NCBI GenBank assembly: GCA_964540135.1
Contig: CAZILK010000001.1
Span: forward strand, 17,843-81,842
Length of the DNA: 64,000 bases
Origin: an uncultured Candidatus Saccharibacteria bacterium
Lineage (GTDB): Bacteria > Patescibacteriota > WWE3 > UBA101185 > UBA10185
Direction of reading: 5' to 3'
Below the pieces are notes generated by a model, which made no database searches, was not told where the DNA came from, and saw only the letters and a list, made by a program, of their open reading frames with translations. The translations under genes and the position numbers were made by a program. Positions 4,106 through 27,754 of the stretch are shown here, piece after piece (position 1 is the first letter of the stretch; each line of letters opens with the position of its first letter).

Positions 4106-5135
4106 TTTTTTCCTCCATTTTAAAATCACTTTCACACATCATAGTGATCAACTCGTCAAAAGTTGTCTTTGGTGCCCAGTTTAATTTTTCTTTCGCCAAA
4201 GACGCATTTCCAAGTAAAAAGTCTACTTCTGCCGGTCTAAAGTACTCAGGATCGACTTTAATCATCTCAGTTCCAGTTTTTGTATCATATCCTACCTCAT
4301 CAAGTCCTTCTCCTCTCCATGCGAGTTCGTAGCCAAAATGTCTTGCAGCTTTTTCGGTAAATTCCCGGACTGAATGTGTTTCTCCGGTTGCAATTACAAA
4401 ATCCTCAGCATTTTCTTGTTGAAGCATAAGCCACATAGCTTCAACATAGTCACCTGCAAATCCCCAGTCTCTTTGTGAATCAAGATTGCCAAGGAAAAGC
4501 ATCTTTTCGTGTCCCAGCTTGATTCTTGCAAGCCCCCTTGAGATTTTTCTTGTCACAAAGGTTTTGCCTCGCCTTGGCGATTCATGATTAAAAAGAATGC
4601 CTGAACAAGCATAGATTCCGTAGCTTTCTCTGTAGTTAACAGTAATCCAATGAGCGTATAGTTTAGCAACTCCATAGGGGCTCCTTGGGTAGAAAGGTGT
4701 CTTTTCAGTTTGTGGGGTTTCTTGTACCTTACCAAACATTTCACTGCTTGAGGCTTGGTAAAACTTAATTTTAGGATTAACTCTGTTAATTGCCTCAAGA
4801 ATCCTAAGCGTGCCAAGACCAACGACATTTCCGGTGTACTCAGGGAGTTCAAAACTCACTTTAACATGGCTCTGAGCACCAAGGTTATAGATCTCTTCTG
4901 GTGAGACTTTCTCAATTAGGTTACTTAAAATACTGGAATCTGTAAGGTCTCCGTAGTGAAGGTGGAGCTGCGGGTGGTTGTGGTGAGGATCTTCATATAA
5001 ATGGTCCAGTCTTTGAGTATTGAAGTTGCTTGAGCGCCTAATAACGCCATGAACCTCATATCCCTTGTTTAGGAGTAGCTCTGTAAGGTAAGAGCCGTCT
5101 TGGCCAGTAATTCCGGTAATCAATGCTTTTTTCAT
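4089..5135 (-). CDS. gmd: GDP-mannose 4,6-dehydratase
   Basis: [47 protein letters not shown] is near-identical to canonical Gmd N-termini; directly upstream of fcl on the same strand. Confidence 0.93.
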
Positions 5136-5203: not shown

Positions 5204-5866
5204 GTGTATATTAAGACTGTGAAAGACAATTTACTACTATCCGGTAATTATTCGGGGTCATTTAATGTACCTGTCTTTAATAAGGTACCTTTTAATAAAA
5301 CTTGCCTTGATGTTGGGTGTTGGGACGGTAACCTTGGGGAAAAGCTCGTATCTCATAAGAAATGTGTTGTAGATGGTATTGATGTTAACGAGGAGATGCT
5401 AAATAAAGCAAAGACACGTGGATATCGGTCAGTTTACCCAATTAACTTAAATCTTGATACTTTGGATTTTTCTTCTATTAAAGAAAGTTACGATGTGATT
5501 ATCTTTGCTGATATTCTTGAACATCTGATCAATCCAGTAAATGTTCTAAGACTTCTAAGTGAGAAACTTAATAAAGACGGTATGATTATAATCTCGTTAC
5601 CTAATGTTGCCTTTTTACTTAATCGGTTAAATTTATTACTTGGTAAATGGCAATATAAAGAATTTGGGACTTTAGATAAAACACATCTTAAATTTTTTAC
5701 ACTTAAAACAGGAAGAGAAATGGTTGAGTCAGTTGGGCTTAAAGTTTTAGATGTTATTCCGTATAATCAATTCGGTATTTTAAAAAAGATACATCCACTA
5801 GAAGAGATTTTCCCAGAACTTCTAGCGTATCAGTTTATGGTCGTTGCAACAAAAGATGAAAAATAA
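5204..5866 (+). CDS. Class I SAM-dependent methyltransferase
   Basis: Motif I LDVGCWDGNLG plus acidic post-I residue; 220 aa; glycan locus. Confidence 0.7.
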   Translation: MYIKTVKDNLLLSGNYSGSFNVPVFNKVPFNKTCLDVGCWDGNLGEKLVSHKKCVVDGIDVNEEMLNKAKTRGYRSVYPINLNLDTLDFSSIKESYDVIIFADILEHLINPVNVLRLLSEKLNKDGMIIISLPNVAFLLNRLNLLLGKWQYKEFGTLDKTHLKFFTLKTGREMVESVGLKVLDVIPYNQFGILKKIHPLEEIFPELLAYQFMVVATKDEK

Positions 5867-6686
5867 AGTAGATGATGTTCTAGTTAGTATAATCTTGCCC
5901 GCATACAAACAAGAGAAAAATATTAAAGAGGATATCCAAAGAATAACTGGAGTTATGGACAGTACCAGATTTAATTACGAGCTAATCGTTATTGTCGATG
6001 GTTTTTTAGATAGAACTTTTGAAATTGCTAAAACACTTGAGTCAGACAAAATCCATGTTGAGGGTTACAAAACAAACTACGGTAAAGGCTATGCTGTAAG
6101 ATACGGTATGGCAAGAGCTAAAGGAGATTTCATAGCATTTATTGATGGCGGTATGGAAATTGATCCAAACGGAATTTCTATGATTCTTGAGCACATGCTG
6201 TGGTATAAGGCTGACATAATGGTAGGGAGTAAGAGACACCCAGCAAGTATTGTTAAATACCCATTCTTCCGAAGATTTTATAGTTTCGGGTACTCGACTC
6301 TTTGTAGACTGCTTTTTAGACTTAAAATCTCAGATACTCAAGCAGGGCTTAAAGTTTATAGAAAAGAAGTACTTGATAAGGTTTTACCTAGACTTGTTGT
6401 TAAAGCTTATGCTTTTGATGTTGAGCTATTAGCTGTTGCTAAATACCTTGGGTTTAAAAGAATCTTTGAGGCGCCAATTGCTGTTTCGCTTGATTTCACT
6501 TCAAGCGGGAAATTATCTTCAGTTTTTAACAAACAAATTAAAGATATTCTATATGACACAATTGCTATCTTTTATCGCATGTATATTCTTGGTTATTATA
6601 AAGACTCAAGTCAACGCAAGTGGATTTACAGCGAGGAACTTAAGATGAATGTTAATACCGGAGAGTTTAACAAACATGGCAAATGA
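5844..6686 (+). CDS. Glycosyltransferase family 2 (dolichyl/polyprenyl-phosphate sugar transferase-like)
   Basis: VSIILPAYKQE N-terminal GT2 motif, IVIVDGFLDRT, DxD-like FIDGG. Confidence 0.7.
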   Translation: MQQKMKNKVDDVLVSIILPAYKQEKNIKEDIQRITGVMDSTRFNYELIVIVDGFLDRTFEIAKTLESDKIHVEGYKTNYGKGYAVRYGMARAKGDFIAFIDGGMEIDPNGISMILEHMLWYKADIMVGSKRHPASIVKYPFFRRFYSFGYSTLCRLLFRLKISDTQAGLKVYRKEVLDKVLPRLVVKAYAFDVELLAVAKYLGFKRIFEAPIAVSLDFTSSGKLSSVFNKQIKDILYDTIAIFYRMYILGYYKDSSQRKWIYSEELKMNVNTGEFNKHGK

Positions 6687-7497
6687 TCCTTTAGTTTCTG
6701 TATTAATACCAGTATACAATGCAGAGAAGTATTTTAATGAAGCACTTCAGAGTATTGTAGATCAAACATATAAAAATATTGAAATAGTCATAATTGATGA
6801 TTGTTCTCAAGATAGTACTGGTGCCATCGCTAAAGCTTTTTCAACTAAAGACTCAAGAGTAAAAGTATTTACAAACGAACAAAATTTGAAACTAAGTGGT
6901 GCTCTTAATGAGGGAATAAGCCATTGTTTCGGGAAATATATTGTTCGGATGGACGGGGACGACGTTTCTTTTTTAGACCGGATTGAAAAGCAAGTAGCAT
7001 ATATGGAACAAAACCCGGAAGTTGGTATTAGCGGCGGTTCGATGGAGATAGGCGATGAGTATTTAGCTAAAATTGGAACTCGAAAATATTATTTAACAGA
7101 CAGTGCTATTAGAAAGAATATCTTTAAATTTAGCCCTTTTTGCCATCCAGGTGTAATTATTAGAAAAGAAGTTTTTGATATAGTAGGTGGGTATGACGGG
7201 AGTTTCACACCGGCTGAGGACTATGAGTTGTATTTTAGAATTGGACTCAAATTTAAGTTTGGCAATATTTCAGATTTTGTTTTGCATTATAGGACACTTC
7301 CAAACAGTATGACCACAAGTTCCATTTCTAAGATGGAGAAAAAAACTATAGAAGTTAGAAAGAAATACATGAAGGTCTACAATGCCGGCTTGTCTGATTA
7401 CTTGTACACCTACGCACATGAAACATTAGGCAGGCTAATACCTCCAACACTTAAGCTGCGATTGTTTATTTTTATTAGAAGCCTGTTTGCAAAGTAA
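6676..7497 (+). CDS. Glycosyltransferase family 2
   Basis: VSVLIPVYNAEKYFNEALQSIVDQTY...IEIVIIDDCSQDST canonical GT2-A signature; start taken at the internal Met after the upstream overlap. Confidence 0.8.
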   Translation: MANDPLVSVLIPVYNAEKYFNEALQSIVDQTYKNIEIVIIDDCSQDSTGAIAKAFSTKDSRVKVFTNEQNLKLSGALNEGISHCFGKYIVRMDGDDVSFLDRIEKQVAYMEQNPEVGISGGSMEIGDEYLAKIGTRKYYLTDSAIRKNIFKFSPFCHPGVIIRKEVFDIVGGYDGSFTPAEDYELYFRIGLKFKFGNISDFVLHYRTLPNSMTTSSISKMEKKTIEVRKKYMKVYNAGLSDYLYTYAHETLGRLIPPTLKLRLFIFIRSLFAK

Positions 7498-7498
7498 T

Positions 7499-8428
7499 AT
7501 GATTAGGTTAATTTTAAAAGGCGGTCTTGGCAATCAAATGTTTCAGTACGCGGCAGCATACTCTCTTGCTAAGAAGCACAATACAACTTTACTTCTTGAT
7601 ACAACTTTTCTAGACACAAATTGGCCTATAAAAGAGTTTGTTAAAAGAGACCTTGAGCTTGATTTATTTAACATCGATTATCAAACTACCGGTTTCTCCG
7701 GCTCAAGATTTATAAATAACTACTTAGGCTATCTTCTTTACTCACTTATTACCTATTTCGGGAGCAAACCCAAATGTGTGACTCAGAATCAAGCATTTAA
7801 CGCACTCGACAAACTACTCAACCAACAAAAATCTTGCAGTGAGCCATCTAAAGAAGATTTTGATAATTTCCCGCAAGACATGCTCCTTGAATGCTATATG
7901 AATGATTACCGATTATTTGAGGTTTTTAGAAGTGAGATATGTGAGATGTACGATACCGACAAGCTAATTGACGACACTTTTAGTGGTACAGAGGAGGCAA
8001 TACGAGCTACAACTTCGGTTGCTGTAAACATAAGAAGAGGGGACTTTCTATTTAAAAAGAACAAGCTTGTGATGAAAATCCTAGATGACAACTACTTTAC
8101 ACAAGCTATAAAGATAATTAAATCAAAAGTTCCAAATCCACATTTCTTTATATTTAACTACGATTATCCTGAAGGTATGACAAGTCCTTACGGTCTATCA
8201 GCTAAAGAATACTCGCTTCTTGGTAGAGAATTTGTTGGTGATCGCTTTAAAACCTATCTACGATTAGCCTCTATTTGCAATCACAATATTTTGTCAAACA
8301 GTACTTTTTCATTCTGGGGTGCGTATTTGAACAAACACATAGATAAAGTAGTAGTTGCTCCAACCTTTTGGGATACATCAGGAAAAGAGTTCTCACTCCC
8401 TAAAGATTGGTTAAAAGTTACTAATTAA
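7499..8428 (+). CDS. Alpha-1,2-fucosyltransferase (glycosyltransferase family 11)
   Basis: GGLGNQMFQYAAAYSLAKK, NIRRGDF and SNSTFSFWGAYL match the three conserved GT11 motifs (H. pylori FutC: GGLGNQMFQYAFAKSL / HIRRGDY / ANSTYSWWAAYL). Confidence 0.85.
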   Translation: MIRLILKGGLGNQMFQYAAAYSLAKKHNTTLLLDTTFLDTNWPIKEFVKRDLELDLFNIDYQTTGFSGSRFINNYLGYLLYSLITYFGSKPKCVTQNQAFNALDKLLNQQKSCSEPSKEDFDNFPQDMLLECYMNDYRLFEVFRSEICEMYDTDKLIDDTFSGTEEAIRATTSVAVNIRRGDFLFKKNKLVMKILDDNYFTQAIKIIKSKVPNPHFFIFNYDYPEGMTSPYGLSAKEYSLLGREFVGDRFKTYLRLASICNHNILSNSTFSFWGAYLNKHIDKVVVAPTFWDTSGKEFSLPKDWLKVTN

Positions 8429-8433
8429 TATAA

Positions 8434-9483
8434 ATGAATATATTATTTTTTGTACCTCACAAAACTATATATGCAGGTCGAACTATATATGAAGGTTATA
8501 AAAATGCTTTCACCGATCTTGGACATACCTTTAAATTCTTAACTGCTGATGATAATCAACAAGAAGTTTTTAGTTCGTTTGCACCGGACATATTCTTCAC
8601 AAGTATTCATTCATATATATTTAAATATTTAGATCTGACTTCTTTAAAAGCTCAAAAGAAAAAAGGCATGAAAGTCTTTGTGAATATGCCAATGTGGCAC
8701 TCACCGCTTTCCAAAACGCGGATTAATGAGGCTCCAAGTATCTCGGGTGTTAAGGAGTATGTACGCTTAATTAAATCAGGTGAGTACGGTGACGTTTATT
8801 ATAATGTTTTTAGGCAAGGTGATAAGAGAATGGAAGGGTTTGAAGAAACAACAGGTTATAAACATTACACTATTAATCTTGCTGCTGATAAACTGTTAAA
8901 TTATTTTGATTATAACGAGAGTTATAAATGTGATATCTCCTTCCTTGGTACAAATTTGCCTGATAAACAAAAGTTCTTTAAAGAAAGACTTTTCCCACTT
9001 AAGAATTCATACAATCTCATGTTGTTTGGTCAAGATTGGACTTTTAAAGATAAAGCTACGGGTTATTTGGCAAAGGCAGGTATGTATATGAATATCCCAG
9101 TTCTGAAAGATATTCAAAAACCAAAACTGCCGATTGTTGCAGAGAGGCAAATATATTCATCGTCCACAATCTCCTTAAACATACATGAGCAGTTTCAAAG
9201 AGATTTTGGCGGAGACTGTAACGAAAGAACTTTTAAAATACCATTATGTGGTGGATTTGAGATTGTCGACTCAATAGAACACATCAAAGATTTATTTGTT
9301 CCTGATAAAGAAATAGTTATGGCGGAAAGTAAAACTGATTGGTTTGAAAAGATTGATTATTATATTAAAAACCCGGATAAAAGGTTGCCAATAATTGAAG
9401 CTGGTAAAGCAAGAGTACTAAAAGATCACACCTATCATAATAGAGTTAACCAAATCCTTGAACTTTACGCTAAAACTACCTAA
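8434..9483 (+). CDS. CgeB-like / Glyco_trans_1_2-family glycosyltransferase-like protein
   Basis: C-terminal block ERTFKIPLCGGFEIVDS...DWFEKIDYYIKNPDKRLPIIEAGKARV resembles the C-terminal domain of CgeB/GT1-like proteins; assignment from pattern memory only. Confidence 0.45.
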   Translation: MNILFFVPHKTIYAGRTIYEGYKNAFTDLGHTFKFLTADDNQQEVFSSFAPDIFFTSIHSYIFKYLDLTSLKAQKKKGMKVFVNMPMWHSPLSKTRINEAPSISGVKEYVRLIKSGEYGDVYYNVFRQGDKRMEGFEETTGYKHYTINLAADKLLNYFDYNESYKCDISFLGTNLPDKQKFFKERLFPLKNSYNLMLFGQDWTFKDKATGYLAKAGMYMNIPVLKDIQKPKLPIVAERQIYSSSTISLNIHEQFQRDFGGDCNERTFKIPLCGGFEIVDSIEHIKDLFVPDKEIVMAESKTDWFEKIDYYIKNPDKRLPIIEAGKARVLKDHTYHNRVNQILELYAKTT

Positions 9484-9543
9484 TAGGGTATTTGAGTTCT
9501 TTCGCCAAAATTAAGATGATAGATAGACTTTTTTTGTAAGCTT

Positions 9544-10872
9544 TCAACACAGTACGCCTGCAAGCGAGGTCCCTTCTGGAATAAATGATGTATCAAAGTC
9601 CATAAGCTTACAAATGGTTGCTGCAACTCTTATCGAGTTGTTACAACTTCTTTCATCTGGGTATACATGAGTCATGTTCCCAACGTAAAGATTAGTAAAA
9701 TCAGTTTTGCTTGGGGTTATTTTCTGTGAAAAATTTAAATCAACTACCGGTGCAGCATATTTAGCCTTGAAGACATGGTATTTACTAACATCTTCGTTTT
9801 TGAAGTTTGGGTAAATATCAGATAACCTGGCGATCATTAGCTTTGCTATTTCATCACCCTCCATGAGTGCTAGCGGATCACTGCTTGCATAGTATCTTGA
9901 AAGATAGGCTAGATGAATACCTCTATAGTTATCGCTTGCTATAAAGTTTGTATGTTCTATAACTCCACCAAACGGGAAGCCTGGGTCTGCTACACTAAGC
10001 CAGTAAACATCGCTCAATGCTTTTTTCATTTCTAAGATTACACAAACAGCTGCGAAGTATTCTATGCTTTTGTTTGTTTTCACTATTTCTTTTAGCTGTG
10101 GGGTTTGCACGGTGAATAGATACTGATCAGCGGCATATCTGCTTGTATCAGTTTTCACGGCTGTAACTAAGTTACCATCTAATTCAATATCTAACACACT
10201 ACTGTTTTTCACTATCGTAACTCCCATTTCTTCTAGCTTAGTTTCAAGAGCCTTTATAATAGTTTCAAACCCACCTTCAAAATATCCAAGTTGCTCGTTG
10301 CCCTTACTTCTTGATCTCATTCGTTGAGATAGTCTTCCAATCATCCATGAAAGAGGGACAACATTTGCAAAATCGCCAAATTTTATATTGAGGAGTGGTT
10401 TCCATAAACATTCTGTTACTTCTTTACCGGCAAACTTATAAAACCAAGCTAAAGCTGATATATTCTCTGAATTTCTCCAGTTTGCAAATCTGCCAAGGTA
10501 CATACTTGTTGAGACAAATCTGATTTTTGAAATCATACTCATAGGTTTAAATTTGAATAAGTCAGGTAGTCCATTAAACCCGTATATCTTTTTATTTCTA
10601 AACACACCCATTTTTGTGTTTTTAAATATTTGTTTGTCTGTAATGCCAAGTTCTTCACATAACCACAGGAGTTCTTTATCGTGCGTAAAGAAATGGTGGT
10701 AGTAATACTCAAGCCTACTACCGCCAACATCAAACGATTTCACCACACCGCCAAGAGAGCTTGAAGCTTCAATAAGAGTTACAGTTTGCTTATTTTTAGC
10801 AAGGATATATGCAGCTGCAAGACCAGTCATACCTCCTCCAACAATTAAGATGTGTTTGTTTGTATTTCTCAT
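9544..10872 (-). CDS. FAD/NAD(P)-binding oxidoreductase (amine-oxidase / UDP-galactopyranose-mutase-like superfamily)
   Basis: N-terminal Rossmann dinucleotide motif ILIVGGGMTGLAAAYILAK followed by EASSSLGG...G; 442 aa; last gene of a minus-strand glycan operon. Confidence 0.65.
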   Translation of the reverse strand: MRNTNKHILIVGGGMTGLAAAYILAKNKQTVTLIEASSSLGGVVKSFDVGGSRLEYYYHHFFTHDKELLWLCEELGITDKQIFKNTKMGVFRNKKIYGFNGLPDLFKFKPMSMISKIRFVSTSMYLGRFANWRNSENISALAWFYKFAGKEVTECLWKPLLNIKFGDFANVVPLSWMIGRLSQRMRSRSKGNEQLGYFEGGFETIIKALETKLEEMGVTIVKNSSVLDIELDGNLVTAVKTDTSRYAADQYLFTVQTPQLKEIVKTNKSIEYFAAVCVILEMKKALSDVYWLSVADPGFPFGGVIEHTNFIASDNYRGIHLAYLSRYYASSDPLALMEGDEIAKLMIARLSDIYPNFKNEDVSKYHVFKAKYAAPVVDLNFSQKITPSKTDFTNLYVGNMTHVYPDERSCNNSIRVAATICKLMDFDTSFIPEGTSLAGVLC

Positions 10873-10887
10873 ATTACGTGTCTGGTT

Positions 10888-11844
10888 TTAAAGCTTAGAT
10901 TCTTTAATTATCCACTCTGGTCTATTTTTTACTTCATCATAAATTCGGCTTAGGTAATTGCCAATGATACCAAGGAAAATTAACTGAACGCCTCCTAGAA
11001 AGAGTATTGAGATGACAATTGTGGCAAAACCAGGGACTGGTCCAAGTCCTATTGAAGTAAAAAAGGGAGTAAATATTCTTTGAAAGAGTGTAAACACCAC
11101 CATAATTAATGCTGCTATTGATACCCAGATGCCAAGGCTAGAGGCAATAGTTAGGGGCACTGTTGAAAAAGAAAATATACCGTCAAAAGCCAATTTCATT
11201 AATTTTTTAAAAGGATATTTTGTTTCTCCACCAGCACGAACTTGCCTTTCATATTCAAGACCTATTTGTTTAAACCCAGACCAGGCTCTAAGGCCGCGAA
11301 CAAACTTATTTTTTTCAGGCATACTTTTTAATGCATTTACTACCTTTCTATCCATGAGTGAGAAATCTCCTGAATCAAGAGGTATGTTAAATGTTACAAG
11401 ATACCCAAGTATTCTATAAAATGCCCAGTAGCATACTCGTTTTATATGTATTTCTTTTCTTTTTTTCCTAATCGCGTAAACAACATCAAACCCTTCTTCC
11501 CATTTCTTAATATATCTATGGAGCTCTTCTGGAGGATCCTGGAGATCTACATCCATAACAATTACAGCGTCTCCATCTGCATGATGTATACCACAGGATA
11601 TTGCTGTTTGATGCCCGAAGTTTCTTGAAAATGAAATTACTTTCCAACGATCGTCTTTAGTATTTTGTTGAAGTAGTAGTTGTAGAGTTTTATCTTCAGA
11701 ACCATCGTCGATACAAAAAACATTATAATCATGCTCCCAACTCTTAGTCGCTTTGATTAATCTTTTAAAAAACAACGGTAGTACTGCTTCCTCGTTATAA
11801 CAGGGAAGAACTATAGAAATTTTCTTGCGTGTTTTAGTTGCCAT
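10888..11844 (-). CDS. Polyprenyl-phosphate glycosyltransferase (GtrB/ArnC/CsbB-like GT2 with C-terminal TM anchor)
   Basis: ISIVLPCYNEE...FCIDDGSEDKT...VIVMDVDLQDPPEEL plus two C-terminal TM helices ending in the conserved NRPxW-like tail. Confidence 0.85.
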   Translation of the reverse strand: MATKTRKKISIVLPCYNEEAVLPLFFKRLIKATKSWEHDYNVFCIDDGSEDKTLQLLLQQNTKDDRWKVISFSRNFGHQTAISCGIHHADGDAVIVMDVDLQDPPEELHRYIKKWEEGFDVVYAIRKKRKEIHIKRVCYWAFYRILGYLVTFNIPLDSGDFSLMDRKVVNALKSMPEKNKFVRGLRAWSGFKQIGLEYERQVRAGGETKYPFKKLMKLAFDGIFSFSTVPLTIASSLGIWVSIAALIMVVFTLFQRIFTPFFTSIGLGPVPGFATIVISILFLGGVQLIFLGIIGNYLSRIYDEVKNRPEWIIKESKL

Positions 11845-11935
11845 ATACTAATTGTTCGAGTCTATTATAATATCTTTCTGCTATATTGTAAGATGCGCGT
11901 TTGTTGTTGGGTTTACAAGTTAGTTAAGAGTTAGT

Positions 11936-14152
11936 TTAGTCTGTTTCGTAGGAAATCCCGTGTTTAGCTAAAACATCACCTCGATATACCCAAGTTTGAA
12001 CATATCCTCTGTAGCTTATGGTAAATTCTGCAGGAACTTCTTTACCGGGTACGGGAACAGTTCTTTTAAGACCGCCTCTTGTGAATATAAAATAATCGTC
12101 CTTTGTGTAAGGTCCGAGCCTTTCTTTATGCGGTATATGATCTGAATCGACATTTATCCCCAAAAGTATTTCGTTTGGTTGCTTACCTTTGTATTTATAT
12201 AACCAAGCACCTCTAAAATTGGCAGTTATAATTGTTTTTTCACAGCTCTTTGTCTTAAGACATCTCTTAAAAATCTCTTTTTGGGCAATCATAATTTCTT
12301 CCCCCCACCCTTGCCAGGCAACATCCATTCTCCCTTGAACAAAGTTCTTATTATAGCTTTCAGACTGATCAGACCAGAATGGTCTAAATGCTGCATATAC
12401 AGGTGCAAATGGCCAAAGCTCAATAACTAGTACAAGAGCAGTAACTGCTATTAATGCTTTCTTTTTAACTAAGCTTTGGTTTGAGTTTATAAAACTGTAT
12501 AGCCTGATTAATATATAGAGCTCAAATATATAGTGGTACAAATCGTAATACCTATTCACAAGCCAAGTTGATGTTAATGCATATCCAAGAGGCATAAGAA
12601 AACACATAATCACAGCTAAGTCCCAGATGAAACTATACTTAGTCTTGTTTGAGTTACGCCTTGTGAAATCAAATATAACAATAAAAGCGAGCAGTACCCA
12701 AAATACTGAGGGAATTGCATTTATAAAAACTGCATAATAAAACGCTATATTTTTAATATGAAACTCTTGTGCGGTGGTCGCACCTGGATACCATGTATAG
12801 TTCGCATTGGGATTTTTGTCATGACCGTAGGTTCCTTTTGGTGCTTGTACAAAAAACCCTTCGTAAGCCTGGGTATTAAATGTTCCCCAGACTCCAATTG
12901 CAAGTGCGGCAATCATTACAATTAAAGCAAGCTTGGAGCTTATTTTGGAGCCTATGTTATCAAAGAGGTTATCAAACTTACTTAATAAAATAGAACATAC
13001 ACAGCTTATTACGACTAGCGCTCCCAAAAGATAGTAAGAGTAAGTTGAGTTGAAATACGCAAGATTGCTGGCAATCTTAGCACTCACAAGAGGCCACCCC
13101 CACGATACAAGAGGGTAGAGTATTGAAACTGTACCTTTAGTCGGAAAATCAAGATCCCTAGCAACGCCTATTAATCCATACATTAAAAGAATCTCAATTA
13201 TACTCGCCACAACCCCTGCCGATATTACAAGAGGAATTATGTATAGCTTTTTGTACTTGTTGTAAGCTAGATAACCTAACATGATAAGCGATACGATGAT
13301 TAACGGTGATACATTTAGCTTTTCTTGTGAACCAGCCACTGATATTACAAGTGCGACAATAGTTAAGTTTAAATTTTTAGTTAAGTATGCTATGCCTAAA
13401 AGAAACATTGCAGCTGTTGCCACAAACATTGCATATAAATCATAGTTCGCAATCTTCCATGCGATTAAGTTCATCGGGGTAATGAGTGTAAACATCATAA
13501 AGAGAATAAACGTTAGAACAAACTTTTCTTCATCAGTTATTTTCAAAACATATTTTTTCAGTAAGCTAAAAATACCAAGCATCATCACAATACCCCCGAT
13601 CCAGTGCAGCATTTTAGCTACCGATAGGAGGCTGTTATAGTCTCCAGGTTTAAAAAGACTAAGAGGTATACCGATTAAAATATAGCTAAGTCTTAAAGCC
13701 CCGTTACCCCAAACTCCCATTTGAGCTGTGTACTTAATAGAGGCAAACTCCATAACCGATATACCCTCATCACTAGCAAGCATTTGAGAGGACTTTTCTA
13801 CCGATATATAGAACAGGAGGCCAATGAGGATAAGTAGTATGCCAATTGCCTTGTAGGATTTAACGTTTCTCTTTAAATAAAAAAAAGTAATTATAAGTCC
13901 AACAGATATGGTAATAAGTTCAAATAAATTAATACCAAGTACTGGCAAGAAAGGTTCAAAGTAACCAACTCCTTTTAACTTAGATGAGATTAAGATTCTG
14001 ATTGTGCAGTAAAAGAAAGCAACTATAAAAAGCCCAGCACACAGAGGCTTTATTCGTTGAGACTGTTTTTTTCTAAAGAGTAAAAAAGCTGTGTAAGCAA
14101 GAGTTGTAATATATAAAAACAGTGCTAAGTGAATTGTAATATCTGTAGTCAT
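11936..14152 (-). CDS. Large polytopic membrane protein (738 aa) with C-terminal soluble domain; possible GT-C-type transferase
   Basis: At least 12 hydrophobic helices in the first ~560 aa and a ~180-aa hydrophilic C-terminal domain; immediately upstream of the GtrB-like gene on the same strand. Confidence 0.5.
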   Translation of the reverse strand: MTTDITIHLALFLYITTLAYTAFLLFRKKQSQRIKPLCAGLFIVAFFYCTIRILISSKLKGVGYFEPFLPVLGINLFELITISVGLIITFFYLKRNVKSYKAIGILLILIGLLFYISVEKSSQMLASDEGISVMEFASIKYTAQMGVWGNGALRLSYILIGIPLSLFKPGDYNSLLSVAKMLHWIGGIVMMLGIFSLLKKYVLKITDEEKFVLTFILFMMFTLITPMNLIAWKIANYDLYAMFVATAAMFLLGIAYLTKNLNLTIVALVISVAGSQEKLNVSPLIIVSLIMLGYLAYNKYKKLYIIPLVISAGVVASIIEILLMYGLIGVARDLDFPTKGTVSILYPLVSWGWPLVSAKIASNLAYFNSTYSYYLLGALVVISCVCSILLSKFDNLFDNIGSKISSKLALIVMIAALAIGVWGTFNTQAYEGFFVQAPKGTYGHDKNPNANYTWYPGATTAQEFHIKNIAFYYAVFINAIPSVFWVLLAFIVIFDFTRRNSNKTKYSFIWDLAVIMCFLMPLGYALTSTWLVNRYYDLYHYIFELYILIRLYSFINSNQSLVKKKALIAVTALVLVIELWPFAPVYAAFRPFWSDQSESYNKNFVQGRMDVAWQGWGEEIMIAQKEIFKRCLKTKSCEKTIITANFRGAWLYKYKGKQPNEILLGINVDSDHIPHKERLGPYTKDDYFIFTRGGLKRTVPVPGKEVPAEFTISYRGYVQTWVYRGDVLAKHGISYETD

Positions 14153-14153
14153 G

Positions 14154-15092
14154 TTAACTTTGTTTTTTAATAGTTAGGATTACAGGACTCCATGTTTTCG
14201 TTTTTATAATTAATTGCGCTACAAGTTTATTAAGACCAAGTGTCTTCATTATATCTAGCATCTTCTTTACTTTATAAAGACCGGCCCACTCACCAAAATT
14301 TGTGCTAGTCATTCTTTCTAAAAATACTTCTTCTCCTAGTGACAGTAGTTCAATGTTGTATTTACTTCCAAGTTTCTTTGTTGCATTTTTTGCCCACCTT
14401 GCATTTAATTCTACATTCAAGGTTTTTGCATACGCTTCATTTCTCCCGGCAATGTATTTTATATACCAAGGAAAAAAACTCTTAAATAACACTGGTGGGT
14501 GAAAGACAGCATAATGCCCATCAAAAAACGAGTGAAAGCTTGGGTACACATATTGAAGTATGCCTCCTGGTTTTAATACACGAAGCCCTTCATCAAGTAC
14601 TTTAAACGGGTCTTTTACATGCTCCATAACGTTAGTTGAATAAACTATATCAAAAGTATTGTCATCAAAAGGCATTTCCTCGCCAAATGCAGCAGTTAAG
14701 GTGTTTTCATCTAGATTATTATCTCTAAAGACCTCCCGTGAGATTGCAAGTGAGTTCCCAAAACCTTCGCCATCAGGCTCAATACCAAAAGCATCAATAT
14801 TAAAATTCTTGATAGCTACTAGGTTAAAAATACCAAAACCAGAACCGACATTAAGTAGCTTTTTACCTGCTATTTCATTCCCGCTAAGATATTTACGAAT
14901 AAGTTCAATTTCGTTTACTGGTTTTACGAGCGAGAGTGTATCTTCAGTTAATTTAGTTATTGGAAGAAAAGAAAGAGCTGTAAAAAAGGCACTATACTCT
15001 TCGTCCACAAGTTTTTTAACATTGTCTGAAAGTAACATTTCAAGAATTATACTATAATAGCCTTGGAGTAAATATAGCGAACTATGAAGCAT
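14154..15092 (-). CDS. Class I SAM-dependent methyltransferase
   Basis: Motif I LNVGSGFGIFNL, LKPGGIL post-II motif; the true start may be the internal Met (MLLSDNVKK, near 15038) because the annotated start overlaps the divergent GT4 start. Confidence 0.7.
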   Translation of the reverse strand: MLHSSLYLLQGYYSIILEMLLSDNVKKLVDEEYSAFFTALSFLPITKLTEDTLSLVKPVNEIELIRKYLSGNEIAGKKLLNVGSGFGIFNLVAIKNFNIDAFGIEPDGEGFGNSLAISREVFRDNNLDENTLTAAFGEEMPFDDNTFDIVYSTNVMEHVKDPFKVLDEGLRVLKPGGILQYVYPSFHSFFDGHYAVFHPPVLFKSFFPWYIKYIAGRNEAYAKTLNVELNARWAKNATKKLGSKYNIELLSLGEEVFLERMTSTNFGEWAGLYKVKKMLDIMKTLGLNKLVAQLIIKTKTWSPVILTIKKQS

Positions 15093-16205
15093 ATACTGAT
15101 TTTAAATTATGAATTCCCGCCTGTTGGTGGTGGGGGCGGAACCTCCTCAAAATATCTAGCAGAGGCATTTGCGAAACATGACTTAAAAGTTCATGTACTA
15201 ACGAGTTGGCTCAAAGGTTTGCCAAAAACTGAAAGCATTGATGGCTACACGGTTCAAAGAATCAACTGCTCTAGATCAAAGCCTGATCGTGCATCACTAT
15301 TTGAAATGTTTTGCAGTGTACTTTTTATGATTGTTCCAGCAATCAGGTATTGTATGGAGGAAAAACCAGATCTTATTCATTGTAACTTTGCAGTTCCTAC
15401 CGGCATCGTCGCTTTTATTTGCAAAAAGCTTACTGGTGTTCCATACGTACTAACGCTCCATGGGGGCGAGGTTCCATCATTCAATAAACCATTTGTAAGT
15501 AATAAGTTTTATTTCTTTTCGGTTGTAATTAAAAAACTAACATCTCCTGTATGGACACAGGCTTGTAGGGTAATTTGTGCAAGTAATTATTTTTATGACC
15601 TGGTCAGAGCGGAGTATCCGACTATCACCCCAGTAGTTATACCGTTTGGTATTGATCTTGACTTCTTTTATCCAAAAGAGAAGATACGCTCAAATAAGAT
15701 ATCTTTACTTTTTTTTAGTAGACTAACTAAACAAAAAGGAGCTTTAGTTTTACTTGATTCTGTTAAAGCTTTTGATAAGTCCCTAGACTGGGAATTAAAC
15801 ATCATCGGTGATGGGCCTATGAGAGGAGAGATTGCGGCTAAAATTGAAAAAGATAATCTTAAAGATAGAGTAACTATGCATGGATGGCAAAGCAAAGAAT
15901 TTATTCGTGAGGCGTTGTGGAAAAGTTCTGTATTTGTGTTCCCGTCGCTACAAGAATCTTTTGGCTTTGTTATGCTTGAGGCGATAGCTACAGGCACACC
16001 GGCAATTGTGTCAGACACTCCTGCATTACAAGAAATTATTGATCAAACTGGTTTTGGTGTTGCGGTTACAGATTGGGATACCGATCTTCTTCCTTCAATC
16101 ACTAAAGCACAAAGTCTTGTATTTGATAAAGCGAAGCTAGCAAACTATTCGTGGGAATTTACAGCAAACAAATATCTTGAAGAATTTACAAGTTGTGTTA
16201 ATTAA
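15084..16205 (+). CDS. Glycosyltransferase family 4 (GT-B, retaining)
   Basis: MKHILILNYEFPPVGGGGGTSS N-terminal GT4 motif; C-terminal E-x7-E region FGFVMLEAIATGTPAIVSD. Confidence 0.85.
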   Translation: MKHILILNYEFPPVGGGGGTSSKYLAEAFAKHDLKVHVLTSWLKGLPKTESIDGYTVQRINCSRSKPDRASLFEMFCSVLFMIVPAIRYCMEEKPDLIHCNFAVPTGIVAFICKKLTGVPYVLTLHGGEVPSFNKPFVSNKFYFFSVVIKKLTSPVWTQACRVICASNYFYDLVRAEYPTITPVVIPFGIDLDFFYPKEKIRSNKISLLFFSRLTKQKGALVLLDSVKAFDKSLDWELNIIGDGPMRGEIAAKIEKDNLKDRVTMHGWQSKEFIREALWKSSVFVFPSLQESFGFVMLEAIATGTPAIVSDTPALQEIIDQTGFGVAVTDWDTDLLPSITKAQSLVFDKAKLANYSWEFTANKYLEEFTSCVN

Positions 16206-17025
16206 CTTTTCCGCCAAACTTCCAAGAGTTACCGTTTCTGTTAATGATATAAACAGAAGTTTTATTAATCTGTGGTACTTTGTCTAACCAGACTTCAATA
16301 TCTTCTTTACTTAAGTAAGTTGTTTGAGGTGTGACAAGTTGGTCAAAAGCAACATGCCTGTGGAAAAAATAACCTCTTTTTGATATCCAGAGTGCATAGC
16401 TATACATTGGCATTTTATTTGCAAAACCCTTTGTCGCAAAAGCTTTTATAAAAGTCGTGTAGAGATAAAAGAAAAACGCAAGTGGTGTTGCAATCAAGTA
16501 TTTAGTAAACCACCAGGGGAGTTTACTTACAACTTTTCTTAACGGATCAACAACGCTAATAACAAAGTTATTGCCTTCTTTTGCATATACCCAGCAATGA
16601 AAATTGCCACTAGCCCTTGTATTTTCAACAACCGCTTCAAACCCCTTAAATGGATCTTTTAAGTGATGAAGAACACCAATACAATAAACAACATCAAACT
16701 TATCTTTGCTTCTATACTTAGTTAAATCTTCTTGCAGTATTTTATAGTTTTCTAAATGAGTAAGCTTCATGTTAGCTTTAGCGGAAAGTATAGAATCACC
16801 AAGGTCAACTCCTTCAAGGTAACTTGGTTCCCAGGTTGAAAGCCACATCATAAGACTCGCGTTACCGCATCCAAGCTCAAGCACACGTTTTCCTTTGATA
16901 TCTTTTTCAGTTAAGGGACTTAACCAATCAACAAATTGATCATAGGTATAAGTTGAACCTTTTGGCAGATTATTCCATGAGGTTGCAAATGCTTGTGCGG
17001 TTTTTGTGTCTTTTCTTTCCTTCAT
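16198..17025 (-). CDS. Class I SAM-dependent methyltransferase
   Basis: Motif I VLELGCGNASLMMWL, DVVYCIGVLHHL motif II/III; overlaps the asnB stop by 4 nt (operon). Confidence 0.7.
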   Translation of the reverse strand: MKERKDTKTAQAFATSWNNLPKGSTYTYDQFVDWLSPLTEKDIKGKRVLELGCGNASLMMWLSTWEPSYLEGVDLGDSILSAKANMKLTHLENYKILQEDLTKYRSKDKFDVVYCIGVLHHLKDPFKGFEAVVENTRASGNFHCWVYAKEGNNFVISVVDPLRKVVSKLPWWFTKYLIATPLAFFFYLYTTFIKAFATKGFANKMPMYSYALWISKRGYFFHRHVAFDQLVTPQTTYLSKEDIEVWLDKVPQINKTSVYIINRNGNSWKFGGKVN

Positions 17026-18872
17026 AAGTTATCAGAGTTTAAAGTTCTTAGTGCCCATAAGAATGTTCCATCATTTGATACTTTATTTATATGATCATTA
17101 ATCTTCTTATCAATAAATTTTTGATTTAACTTTAAATCCTGATTCATATTAATAGTTATTGACTGATTTTGAAACCACTTTCCAATTGGAGCACCAAAAC
17201 CTTTTTTTGATCTGTTAATTATATTATCCGGTATAACATTCTTAAGTGCTTTCTTAAGTATGTATTTTCGCTTTCCGTTTCGCAGCTTATACTCGCCTGG
17301 TATCTTTCTGACAAAATCAACAAGCTCTATATCCAAAAAAGGTGCTCTGACCTCAAGCCCGTTCATCATACTCGCTCTATCGGCTTTGACGAGAATATCG
17401 TCTTGAAGATAAAGCTTTGTGTAGTATTGAAGAGCTTTGTCTACTAAACTAAGTTGTTCGCAATTATTCCATTGATCAAGTGCTTCAGAGAATAGATCAT
17501 CTATTTGAAGAGGTTCGTTAAAAAGCTCTGATAATTCACTAGGTGCTAAAGGAGCCATCCAAGTGGGGAGCCAGAATTTTTTTTCAAATCCCAGCCCTCG
17601 TAGTGTTCGTTTCAGTTTAAAATCAAGACTCATGTTCCGTAAAGAAACCGGCATGTTTAGTATTGTTTTTTCAAATCTCGCATGCATGCTTTTTGGAATA
17701 AATTTTGCATACATTGCAGCAATAGGTAGCGCCTGGAACGGATCATACCCTGCAAACAGTTCGTCGCCGCCATCTCCAGAAAGCGCTACAGTCACATATT
17801 TTTTTGTAAATTTAGAAAGTAAGAAGGTTGGAGTTAGCGAGCTATCTGCCATAGGCTCATCAAGTCTCTCAAGTACGTTAGGTAGTATTTCAAGGGCTTT
17901 ATCAACCGATAGTATATCTAGGTGATGCGCGCAGCCTATGTGTTTGGCAACCTGCCTTGCGTATATAGTTTCATCAAAAGAAGCTTCATCAAACCCAATA
18001 CTAAAAGTTTGCAGAGAATCTTGTTCTACATGTCTTGCAGCAAGAGCTGCGATCGCTGATGAATCTACCCCACCACTTAAAAATACTCCAAGTGGTACAT
18101 CTGCCATTAGTCTTCGTTTCACTGCTCTATCTAGTAAAAACTGTAGCTCCTCGCCCCATTCTCGTTCTGGGTTGCGTGGTAGATGCTCAAAAGGTTCGAT
18201 TTTAAAATCCCAGTACTTGTTAATTTTAAAGCCCTTGTCTTTGATCGAAAAGATTAAAGAATTGCCTGCAGGCAGTTTATAGATATTTTCATAAATAGAA
18301 CTTGGTGCTGGAATATAGCCGTAAGCGAAATATTTTTGGAGTGCTTTTTTTGAAATCTCTCTTTTTAACACTGTGTGGTGCTTAAATGCGGTTAATTCTG
18401 ATGCAAAGGCAAAGACACCGTTTTGGTATGTATAAAAAAATGGTTTCTCACCAAATCTGTCTCTACTACAAAAAAGAAGACCGTTCTTTTTATCATAAAT
18501 AACAAAAGCCCACATGCCGTTGAGTCTAGAAACAAAATCAGGGCCCCATTGAATATAGGAGTTAATTAGAGTTTCAGTGTCTGAATGATCAGTTTTAAAA
18601 CTATGACCTTTTTTCACAAGCTCAGTTCTTAATTCTTCGTGGTTATATATTTCTCCATTAAATATAATGACTATGTTCTCATCAACAGAAATCATTGGTT
18701 GTTGCCCCGTAGCAAGGTCAACAATCGAGAGTCTTCGGTGTCCAAGAAAAACAGTCTTTTCAACATCTACCCATGTTCCTCTTGCATCGGGACCACGATG
18801 AGAAAGGGAATCTGTCATTGCATCAAGAATTTGTGTATTGCCTGTTCCAAAAAAGCCAGTTATTCCGCACAT
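17022..18872 (-). CDS. asnB: Asparagine synthase (glutamine-hydrolysing) family amidotransferase
   Basis: N-terminal MCGITGFFG (Ntn Cys2) so the start is set at this Met, not the ORF-track Met 6 codons upstream; PP-loop SGGVDSS; 616 aa. Confidence 0.88.
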   Translation of the reverse strand: MCGITGFFGTGNTQILDAMTDSLSHRGPDARGTWVDVEKTVFLGHRRLSIVDLATGQQPMISVDENIVIIFNGEIYNHEELRTELVKKGHSFKTDHSDTETLINSYIQWGPDFVSRLNGMWAFVIYDKKNGLLFCSRDRFGEKPFFYTYQNGVFAFASELTAFKHHTVLKREISKKALQKYFAYGYIPAPSSIYENIYKLPAGNSLIFSIKDKGFKINKYWDFKIEPFEHLPRNPEREWGEELQFLLDRAVKRRLMADVPLGVFLSGGVDSSAIAALAARHVEQDSLQTFSIGFDEASFDETIYARQVAKHIGCAHHLDILSVDKALEILPNVLERLDEPMADSSLTPTFLLSKFTKKYVTVALSGDGGDELFAGYDPFQALPIAAMYAKFIPKSMHARFEKTILNMPVSLRNMSLDFKLKRTLRGLGFEKKFWLPTWMAPLAPSELSELFNEPLQIDDLFSEALDQWNNCEQLSLVDKALQYYTKLYLQDDILVKADRASMMNGLEVRAPFLDIELVDFVRKIPGEYKLRNGKRKYILKKALKNVIPDNIINRSKKGFGAPIGKWFQNQSITINMNQDLKLNQKFIDKKINDHINKVSNDGTFLWALRTLNSDNL

Positions 18873-18957
18873 ATTATTTGTATAATGCAACGCAACAGCC
18901 TTAAATGCAACAGTATTTACATATTAAGGTACGATCTACTTATGGTATTATTCCTGT

Positions 18958-20367: not shown

Positions 20368-21408
20368 ATGTTTCTAACAATTGCAATTCCAGCATATAAT
20401 AGACCGGATAACCTAGATGTACTTCTCTCAGGTCTCGTAAAGATCTTAACAGATGAAACTCAGGTTTATATTTCTGATGATGCCTCTCCGTTAGCCTCAG
20501 AAATCAGACAAGTTGTTGAAAAGTACACCGCTCTAAATCCAAACATAAAGTATTTTTTAAACGAGCAGAATTTAGGGTACAGCGGAAATGTGTTTAAGCT
20601 TTATGAGTTAAGCGATTCAAAGTATATCTGGTTTTTGTGTGACGATGATGTTGTTTTAGAAACATCAGTCAGCGATATCATCTCCAAGCTGAAAAAACAT
20701 GAGCCAACCGTTGCTGTTTTTAACCATACACAAATTGATCCATATGGCAGGAAAATAAAAGCTTTTTACGGGGATCACGATTTACTATTCACAGATGATG
20801 CGCAGTTTGAAGATGCTTCCCATTTGTTTAGAATCTGCTTTCTATCAACTCTTGTGGTTGAGAAGCTTGGAGATCTGCCAGAACTTAAAAAGACAGACTA
20901 TGCAAACAATATATTCGTTCAAATCAGCTTCTCGTTTTTGCTTCTTTCTAAAAAGTTTAAATTTGCTGAATTCACAGATGTAGTTTTACACCGTAATGTT
21001 GGCTTTAAATACGGTGAATTCTTTAAGTTTTACACAATAGATACTTTAAAATCGATTTACATTGTTGATCACTGTATATCAACCAAAAAATTCAAAGACT
21101 GGGCTATTAGAGATATGCCTACTGCTTTAAAGCTGTATCTTTCACAAAAACTAGGCCTTTTTAAATATTGGGGGAGACCCACTAAACAGTCTATAAGGTC
21201 TCTCTTTGATTATTACGGCATTTACGCTCTAGCTTTTCTCTCTTTCCCAGTTATTAGCTTTCTAACTCCGACCATTCTACTAAAAGCGCTATATTTCTTT
21301 CAATTAGTTCAAATCCACGGGTTTGAGCAAGCTAAAGTGTTATACAAAGAGAAAATTAACAGAGCGTATACTGATTCAAGGAAAACTGGTTTTACAACAT
21401 ACAAATGA
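20368..21408 (+). CDS. Glycosyltransferase family 2-like
   Basis: N-terminal LTIAIPAYNRPDNLDVLL...VYISDDASP resembles GT2-A; less canonical downstream. Confidence 0.6.
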   Translation: MFLTIAIPAYNRPDNLDVLLSGLVKILTDETQVYISDDASPLASEIRQVVEKYTALNPNIKYFLNEQNLGYSGNVFKLYELSDSKYIWFLCDDDVVLETSVSDIISKLKKHEPTVAVFNHTQIDPYGRKIKAFYGDHDLLFTDDAQFEDASHLFRICFLSTLVVEKLGDLPELKKTDYANNIFVQISFSFLLLSKKFKFAEFTDVVLHRNVGFKYGEFFKFYTIDTLKSIYIVDHCISTKKFKDWAIRDMPTALKLYLSQKLGLFKYWGRPTKQSIRSLFDYYGIYALAFLSFPVISFLTPTILLKALYFFQLVQIHGFEQAKVLYKEKINRAYTDSRKTGFTTYK

Positions 21409-27343: not shown

Positions 27344-27754
27344 ATGCAATTCCTGAACTTTAATATGTTTTTGGTTTTATTGCTTACCTTATTTGTTATT
27401 TTCTATATTTTGGATCTTGATTCGCTTGTTAAACTTGAAAACAAAAACATTTTGTTAAAAAGACCTATCACCAATCTCTTACTTTTGGGAATAGTATTAG
27501 GACTTATTTCACGTGGTGGTATGCAAAACTTCTTAGTCTTTTTAGTTTCTGTTGCCTTTGTTCTCTTTGTTATCTTTCTTTTCTCTCTTGATAGAAAGCT
27601 TATGTTTTTGCTGTTGGGGGTGTTACTACTTTCACTGCCATTTCTTTATTCCTTAAACTTGCTGTTTATAGCAATACATCTCGCTACTCTTATTTTTTTA
27701 CTTCTTTTGGTTGTTGTGTGTAAGGAGCTATCACGTGAAAGCAGTCTTTCTTAA
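27344..27754 (+). CDS. Small hydrophobic membrane protein (136 aa, ~4 TM)
   Basis: Leu/Phe-rich; four hydrophobic segments; sits between membrane-protein genes in the same operon. Confidence 0.4.
   Translation: MQFLNFNMFLVLLLTLFVIFYILDLDSLVKLENKNILLKRPITNLLLLGIVLGLISRGGMQNFLVFLVSVAFVLFVIFLFSLDRKLMFLLLGVLLLSLPFLYSLNLLFIAIHLATLIFLLLLVVVCKELSRESSLS

Follow-up and report, generated by a model that had tools for sequence, protein, structure and literature searches.

The 64,000-nt stretch of Patescibacteria DNA analysed here (contig CAZILK010000001.1, positions 17,843 to 81,842; hereafter the window) carries four minus-strand genes between positions 9544 and 15092, to which we gave the working names OX, GT2, MEM738 and MT312 (Table 1). 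They encode a flavin adenine dinucleotide (FAD)-dependent oxidoreductase, a GtrB-type glycosyltransferase, a large polytopic membrane protein and a methyltransferase dependent on S-adenosylmethionine (SAM), respectively. The original prediction, made from the letters of the window, had treated them as one four-gene unit; the coordinates of its co-directional open reading frames (ORFs) proved exact and its domain calls correct, but the unit itself is not conserved, since MEM738 and MT312 belong to a separate conserved neighborhood that lacks OX. The flagged region is the junction of two separately conserved gene pairs, GT2 with OX and MT312 with MEM738, and the four genes as such were seen together only in near-identical relatives. 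OX beside GT2 points to an undescribed extra step in cell-surface glycosylation, a finding whose weight rests on the pairing of these two genes across phyla and not on the four-gene arrangement of the window.

Table 1. Features of the window, with positions counted from its first letter. The four genes under study and their flanks are given first, the other large membrane proteins after them.
Feature	Position	Strand	Basis
OX, FAD-dependent oxidoreductase, 442 aa	9544..10872	(-)	NF005560 (PRK07233) family, PDS/PPO-like fold
GT2, GtrB-type polyprenyl-phosphate hexosyltransferase, 318 aa	10888..11844	(-)	5ekp match, PF00535, OX-associated clade
MEM738, polytopic membrane protein, 738 aa, candidate GT-C-type transferase	11936..14152	(-)	hydropathy, HMMER family
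MT312, class I SAM-dependent methyltransferase, 312 aa	14154..15092	(-)	Methyltransf_11 56.6 bits
Membrane-protein remnant, 23 residues and stop	9476..9547	(-)	comparison with contigs L004, L005
GT4 glycosyltransferase	15084..16205	(+)	Pfam Glycos_transf_1 and Glyco_transf_4
Further class I SAM methyltransferase, flanked by the GT4 and AsnB-like genes	16198..17025	(-)	Pfam methyltransferase domains
AsnB-like glutamine amidotransferase	17022..18890	(-)	TIGR01536 505 bits
PMT_2 large membrane protein	256-1869		Pfam
Large membrane protein	1878-3179		
Tandem paralogues of about 700 aa, 10-11 transmembrane segments, 31% identical, Pfam-less	21405-23624, 23614-25698	(+)	
Two large Pfam-less membrane proteins	25691-27322, 27711-29726		
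Large membrane protein	30668-32140		
Wzy_C and PMT fusion, 975 aa, about 19 hydrophobic segments	36569-39496	(+)	

The partnership of OX and GT2 was assessed in 80 loci carrying an OX homologue, one genome per GTDB species, which were compared with the window proteins by tblastn and then submitted to ORF calling and clustering (loci are numbered with the prefix L). Homologues at about 50% identity are plentiful (1107 matches at E <= 1e-5), the best match among the GTDB species representatives returned being 54% identical. According to tblastn, most of the 80 loci have a same-strand GtrB-like gene near OX, mostly at a distance of no more than 600 bp. Counts were restricted to the 53 of the 80 loci in which OX is flanked by 3 kb or more in either direction, with the 548 ORFs located four or more genes away as background. 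A same-strand GtrB-like gene lies within two genes of OX in 36 of these 53 loci (68%), against 2 of the 548 background ORFs (0.4%), and a protein of 450 aa or more with six or more transmembrane (TM) segments is found within the same distance in 33 loci (62%), against 37 background ORFs (6.8%); one or the other is present in 45 loci (85%). The OX-GtrB linkage occurs in Bacteroidota, Verrucomicrobiota, Nitrospirota, Spirochaetota and Planctomycetota, as judged from record titles, and the window adds Patescibacteria, giving at least six phyla. OX precedes GT2 in Bacteroidota, and GT2 precedes OX in Verrucomicrobiota, Nitrospirota, Spirochaetota and the window. In a neighbor-joining tree, the OX-adjacent GT2s, including that of the window, form one clade, to which neither the second GtrB of Emticicia nor the AsnB-linked GT2s belong. 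The conserved synteny, like the co-clading, extends over several phyla and thus shows OX to be a dedicated partner of one GtrB clade, and the functional tie between the two genes that the original prediction had proposed is borne out.

The membrane proteins encoded beside the pair come from many unrelated families: PMT_2 proteins with TPR repeats (726-1003 aa), a 603-aa family with no Pfam match, a 9-TM family of about 500 aa, TPR-bearing proteins of 650 aa, a DUF6798 protein and a 751-aa, weakly YfhO-like protein. In several Bacteroidota loci, GT2 is followed by a flippase-like LPG_synthase_TM protein. The clearest example is a locus from an uncultured bacterium (L058:8292-13636), in which a GtrB-like gene, GtrA (PF04138, 71.6 bits), OX and the gene for the 751-aa, 10-TM protein are consecutive on the same strand; the YfhO match of this last protein is C-terminal and sub-threshold (22.7 bits against a cut-off of 28.5). 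Judged from these domain assignments, the locus is a complete Gtr-type cassette with OX inside. In another locus (L003) the order is PMT_2 with TPR, OX, GT2 and a methyltransferase, and SAM methyltransferases stand beside the pair in three further loci (L018, L019 and L029). An NADPH-dependent FMN reductase (FMN_red) follows GT2 in L006 and L085, a fatty-acid-desaturase-like membrane protein, identified by its histidine-box sequence only, is encoded between OX and GT2 in L020, L035 and L054, and L083 contains two OX paralogues; such additions to the cassettes may hint at redox chemistry. An apparent GT2-OX fusion in L076 (854-aa ORF) was discarded as a wrong-frame, high-GC read-through in which only residues 403-847 match OX. 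Several presumed Emticicia partners beside the pair were likewise set aside, sequence inspection having identified them as unrelated housekeeping genes (NuoK/NuoL-like, ArgC/ArgD-like and Lgt-like).

Comparison with close relatives revealed that a membrane-protein gene next to OX has been lost from the window. Two metagenome contigs (L004 and L005) share about 91% identity with positions 13009-9513 of the window and keep the order MEM738-GT2-OX, and the homology stops at 9513. On these contigs, an ORF for a polytopic membrane protein of at least 266 aa overlaps the OX stop codon by 4 bp (L004:3463-4260). In the window, only 23 codons of it are left before a stop; here as on the contigs, the TTG start and the OX stop codon share the tetranucleotide TTGA. 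The frame of the remnant reads (M)KAYKKSLSIILILAKELKYPIR up to its stop codon, compared with MLKTYKKRLLIILFLVLV... in L004, and an unrelated, convergent glycosyltransferase gene lies beyond it. From this arrangement, the lost membrane protein is predicted to be translationally coupled to OX in the close relatives, and the break at about 9513 is the mark of a recent event, either replacement or deletion, that affected the cassette edge. Because the usual order in the clade of the window pair is GT2, OX, large membrane protein (L055 and L058), the truncated protein was probably once the cognate transferase of GT2-OX. In L065, at a contig edge, only OX and the membrane protein are present.

The membrane protein on the other side of GT2 has a different history. 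Hydropathy analysis divided MEM738 into roughly 14-16 hydrophobic segments and a hydrophilic domain of 149 aa at the C-terminus, an arrangement that agrees with the topology of GT-C glycosyltransferases (many N-terminal TM helices and an extracytoplasmic C-terminal domain), and no Pfam, NCBIfam or PDB sequence match was found for it. A word-indexed search returned only MEM738 itself, and the orphan status that this suggested was overturned by an exhaustive HMMER search, which identified homologues in 202 cluster representatives, typically of 650-690 aa and 22-34% identical. Their conserved motifs are TQFLTxDE (D128), AxQEK (E277 and K278), FRPxW, WxGWGEE and RGxxQAWVFRGD; D128 is invariant among the nine closest members, the DE pair is part of the family consensus, and the positive-inside rule places TQFLTxDE after the TM segment that follows a K/R-rich loop (predicted sidedness). 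A Pfam scan of 61 members gave sporadic, sub-threshold PMT_2 or GtrII matches in 2-3 homologues. The possibility that MEM738 is a paralogue of other large membrane proteins of the window was ruled out by comparison. Topology, motifs and context alone make MEM738 a probable membrane transferase that depends on a lipid carrier. The earlier proposal that it is the GT-C consumer of the lipid-linked sugar stands in part: large polytopic proteins, some with GT-C signatures, do recur beside the OX-GT2 pair, but MEM738 itself is not shown to be one of the GT-C enzymes. MT312 is, by its domain match, a generic class I SAM methyltransferase. The automatic gene caller on the identical public contig places its start later (at about 15038, some 54 bp on, giving 294 aa), which abolishes the overlap with the divergent GT4 gene.

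We then considered the MEM738 family in 18 metagenome loci (L087-L104), which were found with a 9-sequence alignment and in which gene counts were coverage-filtered. No OX-family gene was present in any of the 18. An AsnB-like gene 40-54% identical to that of the window occurs near the MEM738-family gene in 8 loci, homologues of the window GT4 (27-34% identity) occur in 6, and an MT312-like gene (31-35% identity) lies directly upstream in 2 (L088 and L093). In 5 loci, AsnB is adjoined by a different, GtrB/DPM-like GT2, and the GT2 at 5844-6686 of the window, which has no predicted TM helices, clusters with these AsnB-linked GT2s. The AsnB-like protein of the window scores above the cut-off of TIGR01536 and, with 513 bits, below that of the XrtA/PEP-CTERM amidotransferase model. 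MT312-MEM738 together with GT4 and AsnB is, on this comparison, a conserved and undescribed neighborhood in its own right, and since MEM738 loci carry AsnB, GT4 and another GT2 and no OX, the window juxtaposes two conserved neighborhoods.

These results bear on whether the four genes could nevertheless be one functional operon, with MEM738 as the GT-C enzyme that consumes the GT2/OX product and MT312 methylating the transferred sugar. The genes are co-directional with spacings of only 1 bp (MEM738/MT312), 91 bp (GT2/MEM738) and 15 bp (OX/GT2), the MEM738-GT2-OX order is kept in the 91%-identical relatives, and with the OX-coupled membrane protein lost, MEM738 is the nearest remaining candidate. 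Against this, the metagenome MEM738 loci pair with the other GT2 clade, AsnB and GT4, tblastn found no MEM738 homologue in OX-linked GTDB loci outside this lineage, and membership of MEM738 in GT-C is undemonstrated. In addition, the best sigma-70-like match of the region, CTTACA-17-TATAAT at 11864-11892 (-), lies in the MEM738/GT2 gap; CPR (candidate phyla radiation) promoters are, however, an uncharacterised class, and promoter-like matches overall are not enriched compared with shuffled sequence. Because of this site in the 91-bp gap before GT2, a single operon for the four genes is not established, and a separate GT2-OX transcription unit would be compatible with the match. On the whole, we consider the one-operon explanation rather unlikely.

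GT2 itself can be assigned with more precision. Its residues 8-314 match chain residues 27-327 of Synechocystis GtrB (5ekp) with 292 bits, ArnC structures give 150-160 bits, and Glycos_transf_2 (PF00535) covers residues 10-170 with 106 bits. The acidic DXD-type motifs of the GT-A domain are seen in IDDGSED and MDVDLQDP, and a crude hydropathy count gives two hydrophobic segments, which a reading of the sequence places at the C-terminus. As the scores remain below both equivalog cut-offs (270 against 500 for PgfS, 178 against 529 for ArnC), the protein is neither PgfS nor ArnC specifically. By homology, GT2 is a GtrB-type polyprenyl-phosphate glycosyltransferase, in agreement with the original GtrB/ArnC-type assignment.

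OX passes the cut-off of only one curated model, NF005560 (PRK07233, "hypothetical protein"), with 425.8 bits against 252 over residues 7-424 of 442; this NCBIfam family is without assigned function. In Pfam, it matches Amino_oxidase (PF01593, 78 bits) and NAD_binding_8. Models for protoporphyrinogen oxidase (PPO), CrtI, phytoene desaturase (PDS) and HpnE give 30-60 bits against cut-offs of 98-640: 30.8 bits for TIGR02731 (PDS; cut-off 569.4), 33.5 for crtI_fam (238), 56 for HpnE (283), 52.4 for TIGR00562 (PPO; 97.85) and 53-59 for the PRK11883 models (cut-offs >500). An AlphaFold2 (AF2) model built from 15 family members (pLDDT 87, pTM 0.87) has rice PDS (5mog, TMq 0.79) as its top Foldseek neighbor in the PDB, several PPOs follow at 0.70-0.74, and two uncharacterised archaeal oxidoreductases (3ka7 and 3nrn) are among the best neighbors. 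The family profile likewise matches PDS 5mog over residues 5-386 (E 6e-15). As modelled, OX is a flavoenzyme with a PDS/PPO-like fold. The best solved relatives, PDS and PPO, and the JGI label "protoporphyrinogen oxidase" on many homologues could be taken to mean that OX is simply one more enzyme of the carotenoid, porphyrin or amine-oxidase kind, placed beside GT2 by chance. This is hardly credible given that OX stays below the PPO, CrtI, PDS and HpnE equivalog cut-offs, that adjacency in at least six phyla contrasts with a background of 0.4%, and that no carotenoid, haem or hopanoid genes are found near OX in the window annotations. The original prediction had named, as evidence that would count against it, a match of OX to a carotenoid or porphyrin enzyme family together with a unit not conserved as a whole. 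About half of this was found: carotenoid and porphyrin enzymes are indeed the closest relatives of known function, and the four genes do not travel as a set, but OX falls far short of the scores that define those families, and its pairing with GT2 is strongly conserved.

The same prediction had compared the segment YYYHHFFTHDK of OX to a motif of Glf, the UDP-galactopyranose mutase (UGM), and suggested that a furanose might be made. The segment is indeed present at residues 56-66, and Y58, H59, H60, F61, F62, T63 and D65 are invariant in the 15 family members; it is not Glf-specific, as it lines up with a PDS segment including HIFFG in the family-profile alignment. Because PDS shares it, we interpret the segment as a flavin-binding feature of the superfamily. 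The Pfam scan detected no GLF domain (PF03275) in OX at E <= 0.01, the family profile matches UGM 1i8t over residues 5-105 only (E 1.5e-4), and UGM 4dsg is at Foldseek rank 45 (TMq 0.68). Judged by these profile and fold comparisons, OX is not Glf, and the Glf-type assignment is abandoned. A looser version, in which OX would form a furanose as a Glf-like, redox-neutral flavin mutase, with either the UDP-sugar used by GT2 or the sugar already bound to the lipid as its substrate, can draw on the superfamily fold and the H-x-F-x-T-x-D segment common to OX and UGM. A lone flavoenzyme with no redox partner would also suit a redox-neutral isomerase, and the FMN reductase after the pair in two loci could keep its flavin reduced. 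We nevertheless regard it as highly unlikely: PDS is matched near full length where UGM is matched only at the N-terminus, the motif aligns equally well with PDS, and L003 encodes a true Glf, with its GLF domain, besides its OX cassette. The Rossmann motif of OX, read directly as GGGMTG from residue 12, is a GxGxxG at the very N-terminus that leaves no room for a signal peptide, so a cytoplasmic location is predicted.

The surroundings of the four genes indicate what kind of product they may contribute to. Positions 1-43 kb of the window form a surface-glycan island that ends at recO (43.2 kb) and includes Gmd, Fcl, a GT11-type fucosyltransferase, at least six SAM methyltransferases, many GT2/GT4 genes, an AsnB-like amidotransferase and a Bac_transf initiating transferase. 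GDP-mannose 4,6-dehydratase and GDP-L-fucose synthase (3176-5135 (-)) are encoded near the GT11-type fucosyltransferase (7487-8428 (+)), and the island glycan probably contains fucose. At least nine large polytopic proteins are encoded within the 43 kb (Table 1). One of them unusually joins two membrane glycan enzymes in a single chain, an O-antigen-ligase/Wzy_C domain (residues 243-397) and a PMT/PMT_2 (ArnT-like) GT-C domain (492-712). Beyond the island lie housekeeping genes for glycyl-tRNA synthetase (GlyRS), RelA/SpoT, a penicillin-binding protein, phosphoenolpyruvate synthase and enolase. GlyRS (46850-48223) shares 71-85% identity with proteins that bear the label candidate division WWE3 or Patescibacteria, which identifies the host as a WWE3-like member of the ultra-small CPR bacteria. 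About two-thirds of the window consists of glycan-biosynthesis genes, a notable share for a small genome, and the window thus shows the scale of the investment of a small CPR genome in surface glycan machinery.

On balance, we lean towards the reading that GT2 and OX constitute a Gtr-type lipid-carrier glycosylation module with a dedicated flavoenzyme, located beside the separate MT312-MEM738 module. By homology, GT2 would transfer a hexose from a nucleotide sugar to polyprenyl phosphate at the cytoplasmic face of the membrane, and OX would act in the same pathway on the same face, so that the two enzymes together would supply a modified lipid-linked monosaccharide donor. Once flipped, the modified donor would serve a GT-C-type transferase on the outer side of the membrane. 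For this strain, the candidates for that role are MEM738 and eight or more further large membrane proteins of the island; the consumer is uncertain because the OX-coupled membrane protein has been cut to a 23-residue remnant. Several observations weigh against this reading. About one-third of OX loci have no GtrB-like gene nearby (e.g. Larkinella, Jiulongibacter and L001), and many of the 80 loci belong to related Emticicia species, so that the counts overstate independent events and only the spread over phyla is independent. Neither GtrA (PF04138) nor an LPG_synthase_TM flippase was detected among the small membrane ORFs scanned in the window. For MEM738, the family profile had no match in the PDB, hhalign against PMT_2 and other partner membrane families (eight) and against M7 gave at most 5% probability, and a single-sequence AF2 model was unusable (pLDDT 40). 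For OX, sequence does not tell in which direction the reaction runs or whether it targets the lipid, the sugar or the nucleotide sugar, and our literature search found neither a description of NF005560 (PRK07233) biochemistry nor a biochemical datum for any member. Finally, the invariant residues of the 15 OX-family members are unusually polar and aromatic (six Arg and many Tyr, Trp and His), a composition that would also fit a sugar-phosphate or nucleotide-sugar site instead of a hydrophobic, carotenoid-type tunnel.

As to what OX does, our tentative proposal, held with less than even confidence and by analogy to its relatives, is that it changes a prenyl-phosphate-linked species near the phosphate. 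The enzyme would make a redox or isomerising change on the isoprenoid, for instance by saturating or desaturating one isoprene unit; PDS carries out a reaction of this kind on phytoene, and RetSat saturates the alpha-isoprene double bond of retinol. The altered isoprenoid could then represent a dedicated carrier or donor pool. A lipid-linked change is favored because the closest relatives (PDS, HpnE and RetSat) act on isoprenoid chains, because no conserved second enzyme is available to complete a sugar epimerisation, and because a dedicated GT2 clade fits the recognition of an altered carrier.

Since the invariant residues of OX are polar and Arg-rich, sugar oxidation and Glf-like isomerisation remain live beside it. 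In the former, OX would oxidise the sugar of the GT2-made polyprenyl-P-hexose from C-OH to keto, in the manner of DprE1, yielding an epimerised, keto or further-derivatised lipid-linked sugar for the GT-C enzyme. The position of OX within Gtr-type cassettes agrees with this, invariant Arg, Tyr, Trp, His and Asn would suit the binding of a sugar phosphate, and the SAM methyltransferases that recur beside the pair are in keeping with further derivatisation. However, no conserved partner reductase or aminotransferase accompanies the pair in the clustered loci, the nearest relatives of OX act on C-C or C-N bonds of hydrophobic substrates, and the fold of DprE1, which is of the VAO/PCMH type, differs from that of OX. 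The amine-oxidase/PDS/PPO superfamily is not known to us to include any sugar alcohol oxidase. DprE1/DprE2 and Citrobacter youngae ORF13, which acts on lipid-linked pentoses (PMC11127046), provide precedents, and we nonetheless judge sugar oxidation clearly unlikely.

A wider claim, which we consider doubtful, is that with the NF005560 enzymes, GtrB-type lipid-carrier glycosylation would have its first dedicated flavoenzymes. Their action would be either to alter the polyprenyl-phosphate carrier, for example through a RetSat-like alpha-isoprene saturation that makes it a bacterial counterpart of dolichol or through a desaturated or isomerised chain, or to isomerise the lipid-linked sugar, and thereby provide a segregated donor pool that is read by diverse GT-C enzymes in Bacteroidota, Verrucomicrobiota, Nitrospirota, Spirochaetota and CPR. 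Literature searches on GtrB and FAD oxidoreductases or polyprenol-modifying enzymes returned no description of an NF005560-GtrB pairing, and a 2026 polyisoprenoid review contains nothing on bacterial chain-modifying enzymes. If the reading is true, a flavoenzyme travelling with one GtrB clade in at least six phyla would add a new step to polyprenyl-phosphate glycosylation, and a widespread, function-less family would be assigned a role. If it is the lipid and not the sugar that is modified, the view of one uniform bacterial undecaprenyl carrier would change.

Extracytoplasmic glycosylation of the Gtr, Arn, CsbB/YfhO, Pgf and decaprenylphosphoryl-arabinose (DPA) types, which takes its sugars from polyprenyl-phosphate monosaccharides, drives serotype diversity, antibiotic resistance and cell-wall assembly. 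To our knowledge, the well-known cases in which a lipid-linked sugar is remodelled before transfer are limited to DprE1/DprE2, a major tuberculosis drug target, and ArnD, with a recent short-chain dehydrogenase/reductase epimerase as a further case. The mycobacterial conversion of decaprenylphosphoryl-ribose to DPA, in which the FAD oxidase DprE1 and the reductase DprE2 precede GT-C arabinosyltransferases, is similar in concept to the module proposed here, in that a lipid-linked monosaccharide is modified before GT-C use and the modifier is an FAD enzyme; it differs in its DprE2-like partner, none being conserved beside OX-GT2. The pentofuranose system of Citrobacter youngae (ORF12-15) also modifies a lipid-linked sugar before GT-C use, and Kelly et al. 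knew of no other epimerases in O-polysaccharide side-chain glycosylation systems (PMC11127046). In both systems, the donor comes from a UbiA-like synthase dependent on phosphoribosyl pyrophosphate, whereas here it would come from a GtrB-type GT2.

Among flavoenzymes, the PDS/CrtI/RetSat/HpnE branch, whose members act on isoprenoid chains, is the best structural and profile match of OX, including the HxFF segment; OX differs in scoring far below the family cut-offs, in its setting away from carotenoid or hopanoid genes and in its much more polar invariant residues. With Glf, OX shares the N-terminal FAD-binding module, the H-x-F-x-T segment and the link to glycan synthesis, and it differs in its lack of a GLF domain, in a similarity limited to the first ~100 residues and in the low structural rank of UGM. 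The closest parallels to the module as a whole are GtrA/GtrB/GtrC O-antigen glucosylation of Shigella and Salmonella phages, CsbB/YfhO and PgfS/PgfM. These systems are alike in a GtrB-type GT2 with two membrane segments that makes polyprenyl-P-hexose, an activity assigned by homology here, and in the variable genes for large polytopic transferases that adjoin it; in L058, one of the related loci, GtrA and a weakly YfhO-like protein are present as well. No GtrA was detected among the window ORFs scanned, and the papers searched on Gtr systems describe no flavoenzyme as a component, whereas here the flavoenzyme NF005560 is a conserved member of the cassette and the GT2s form a clade of their own.

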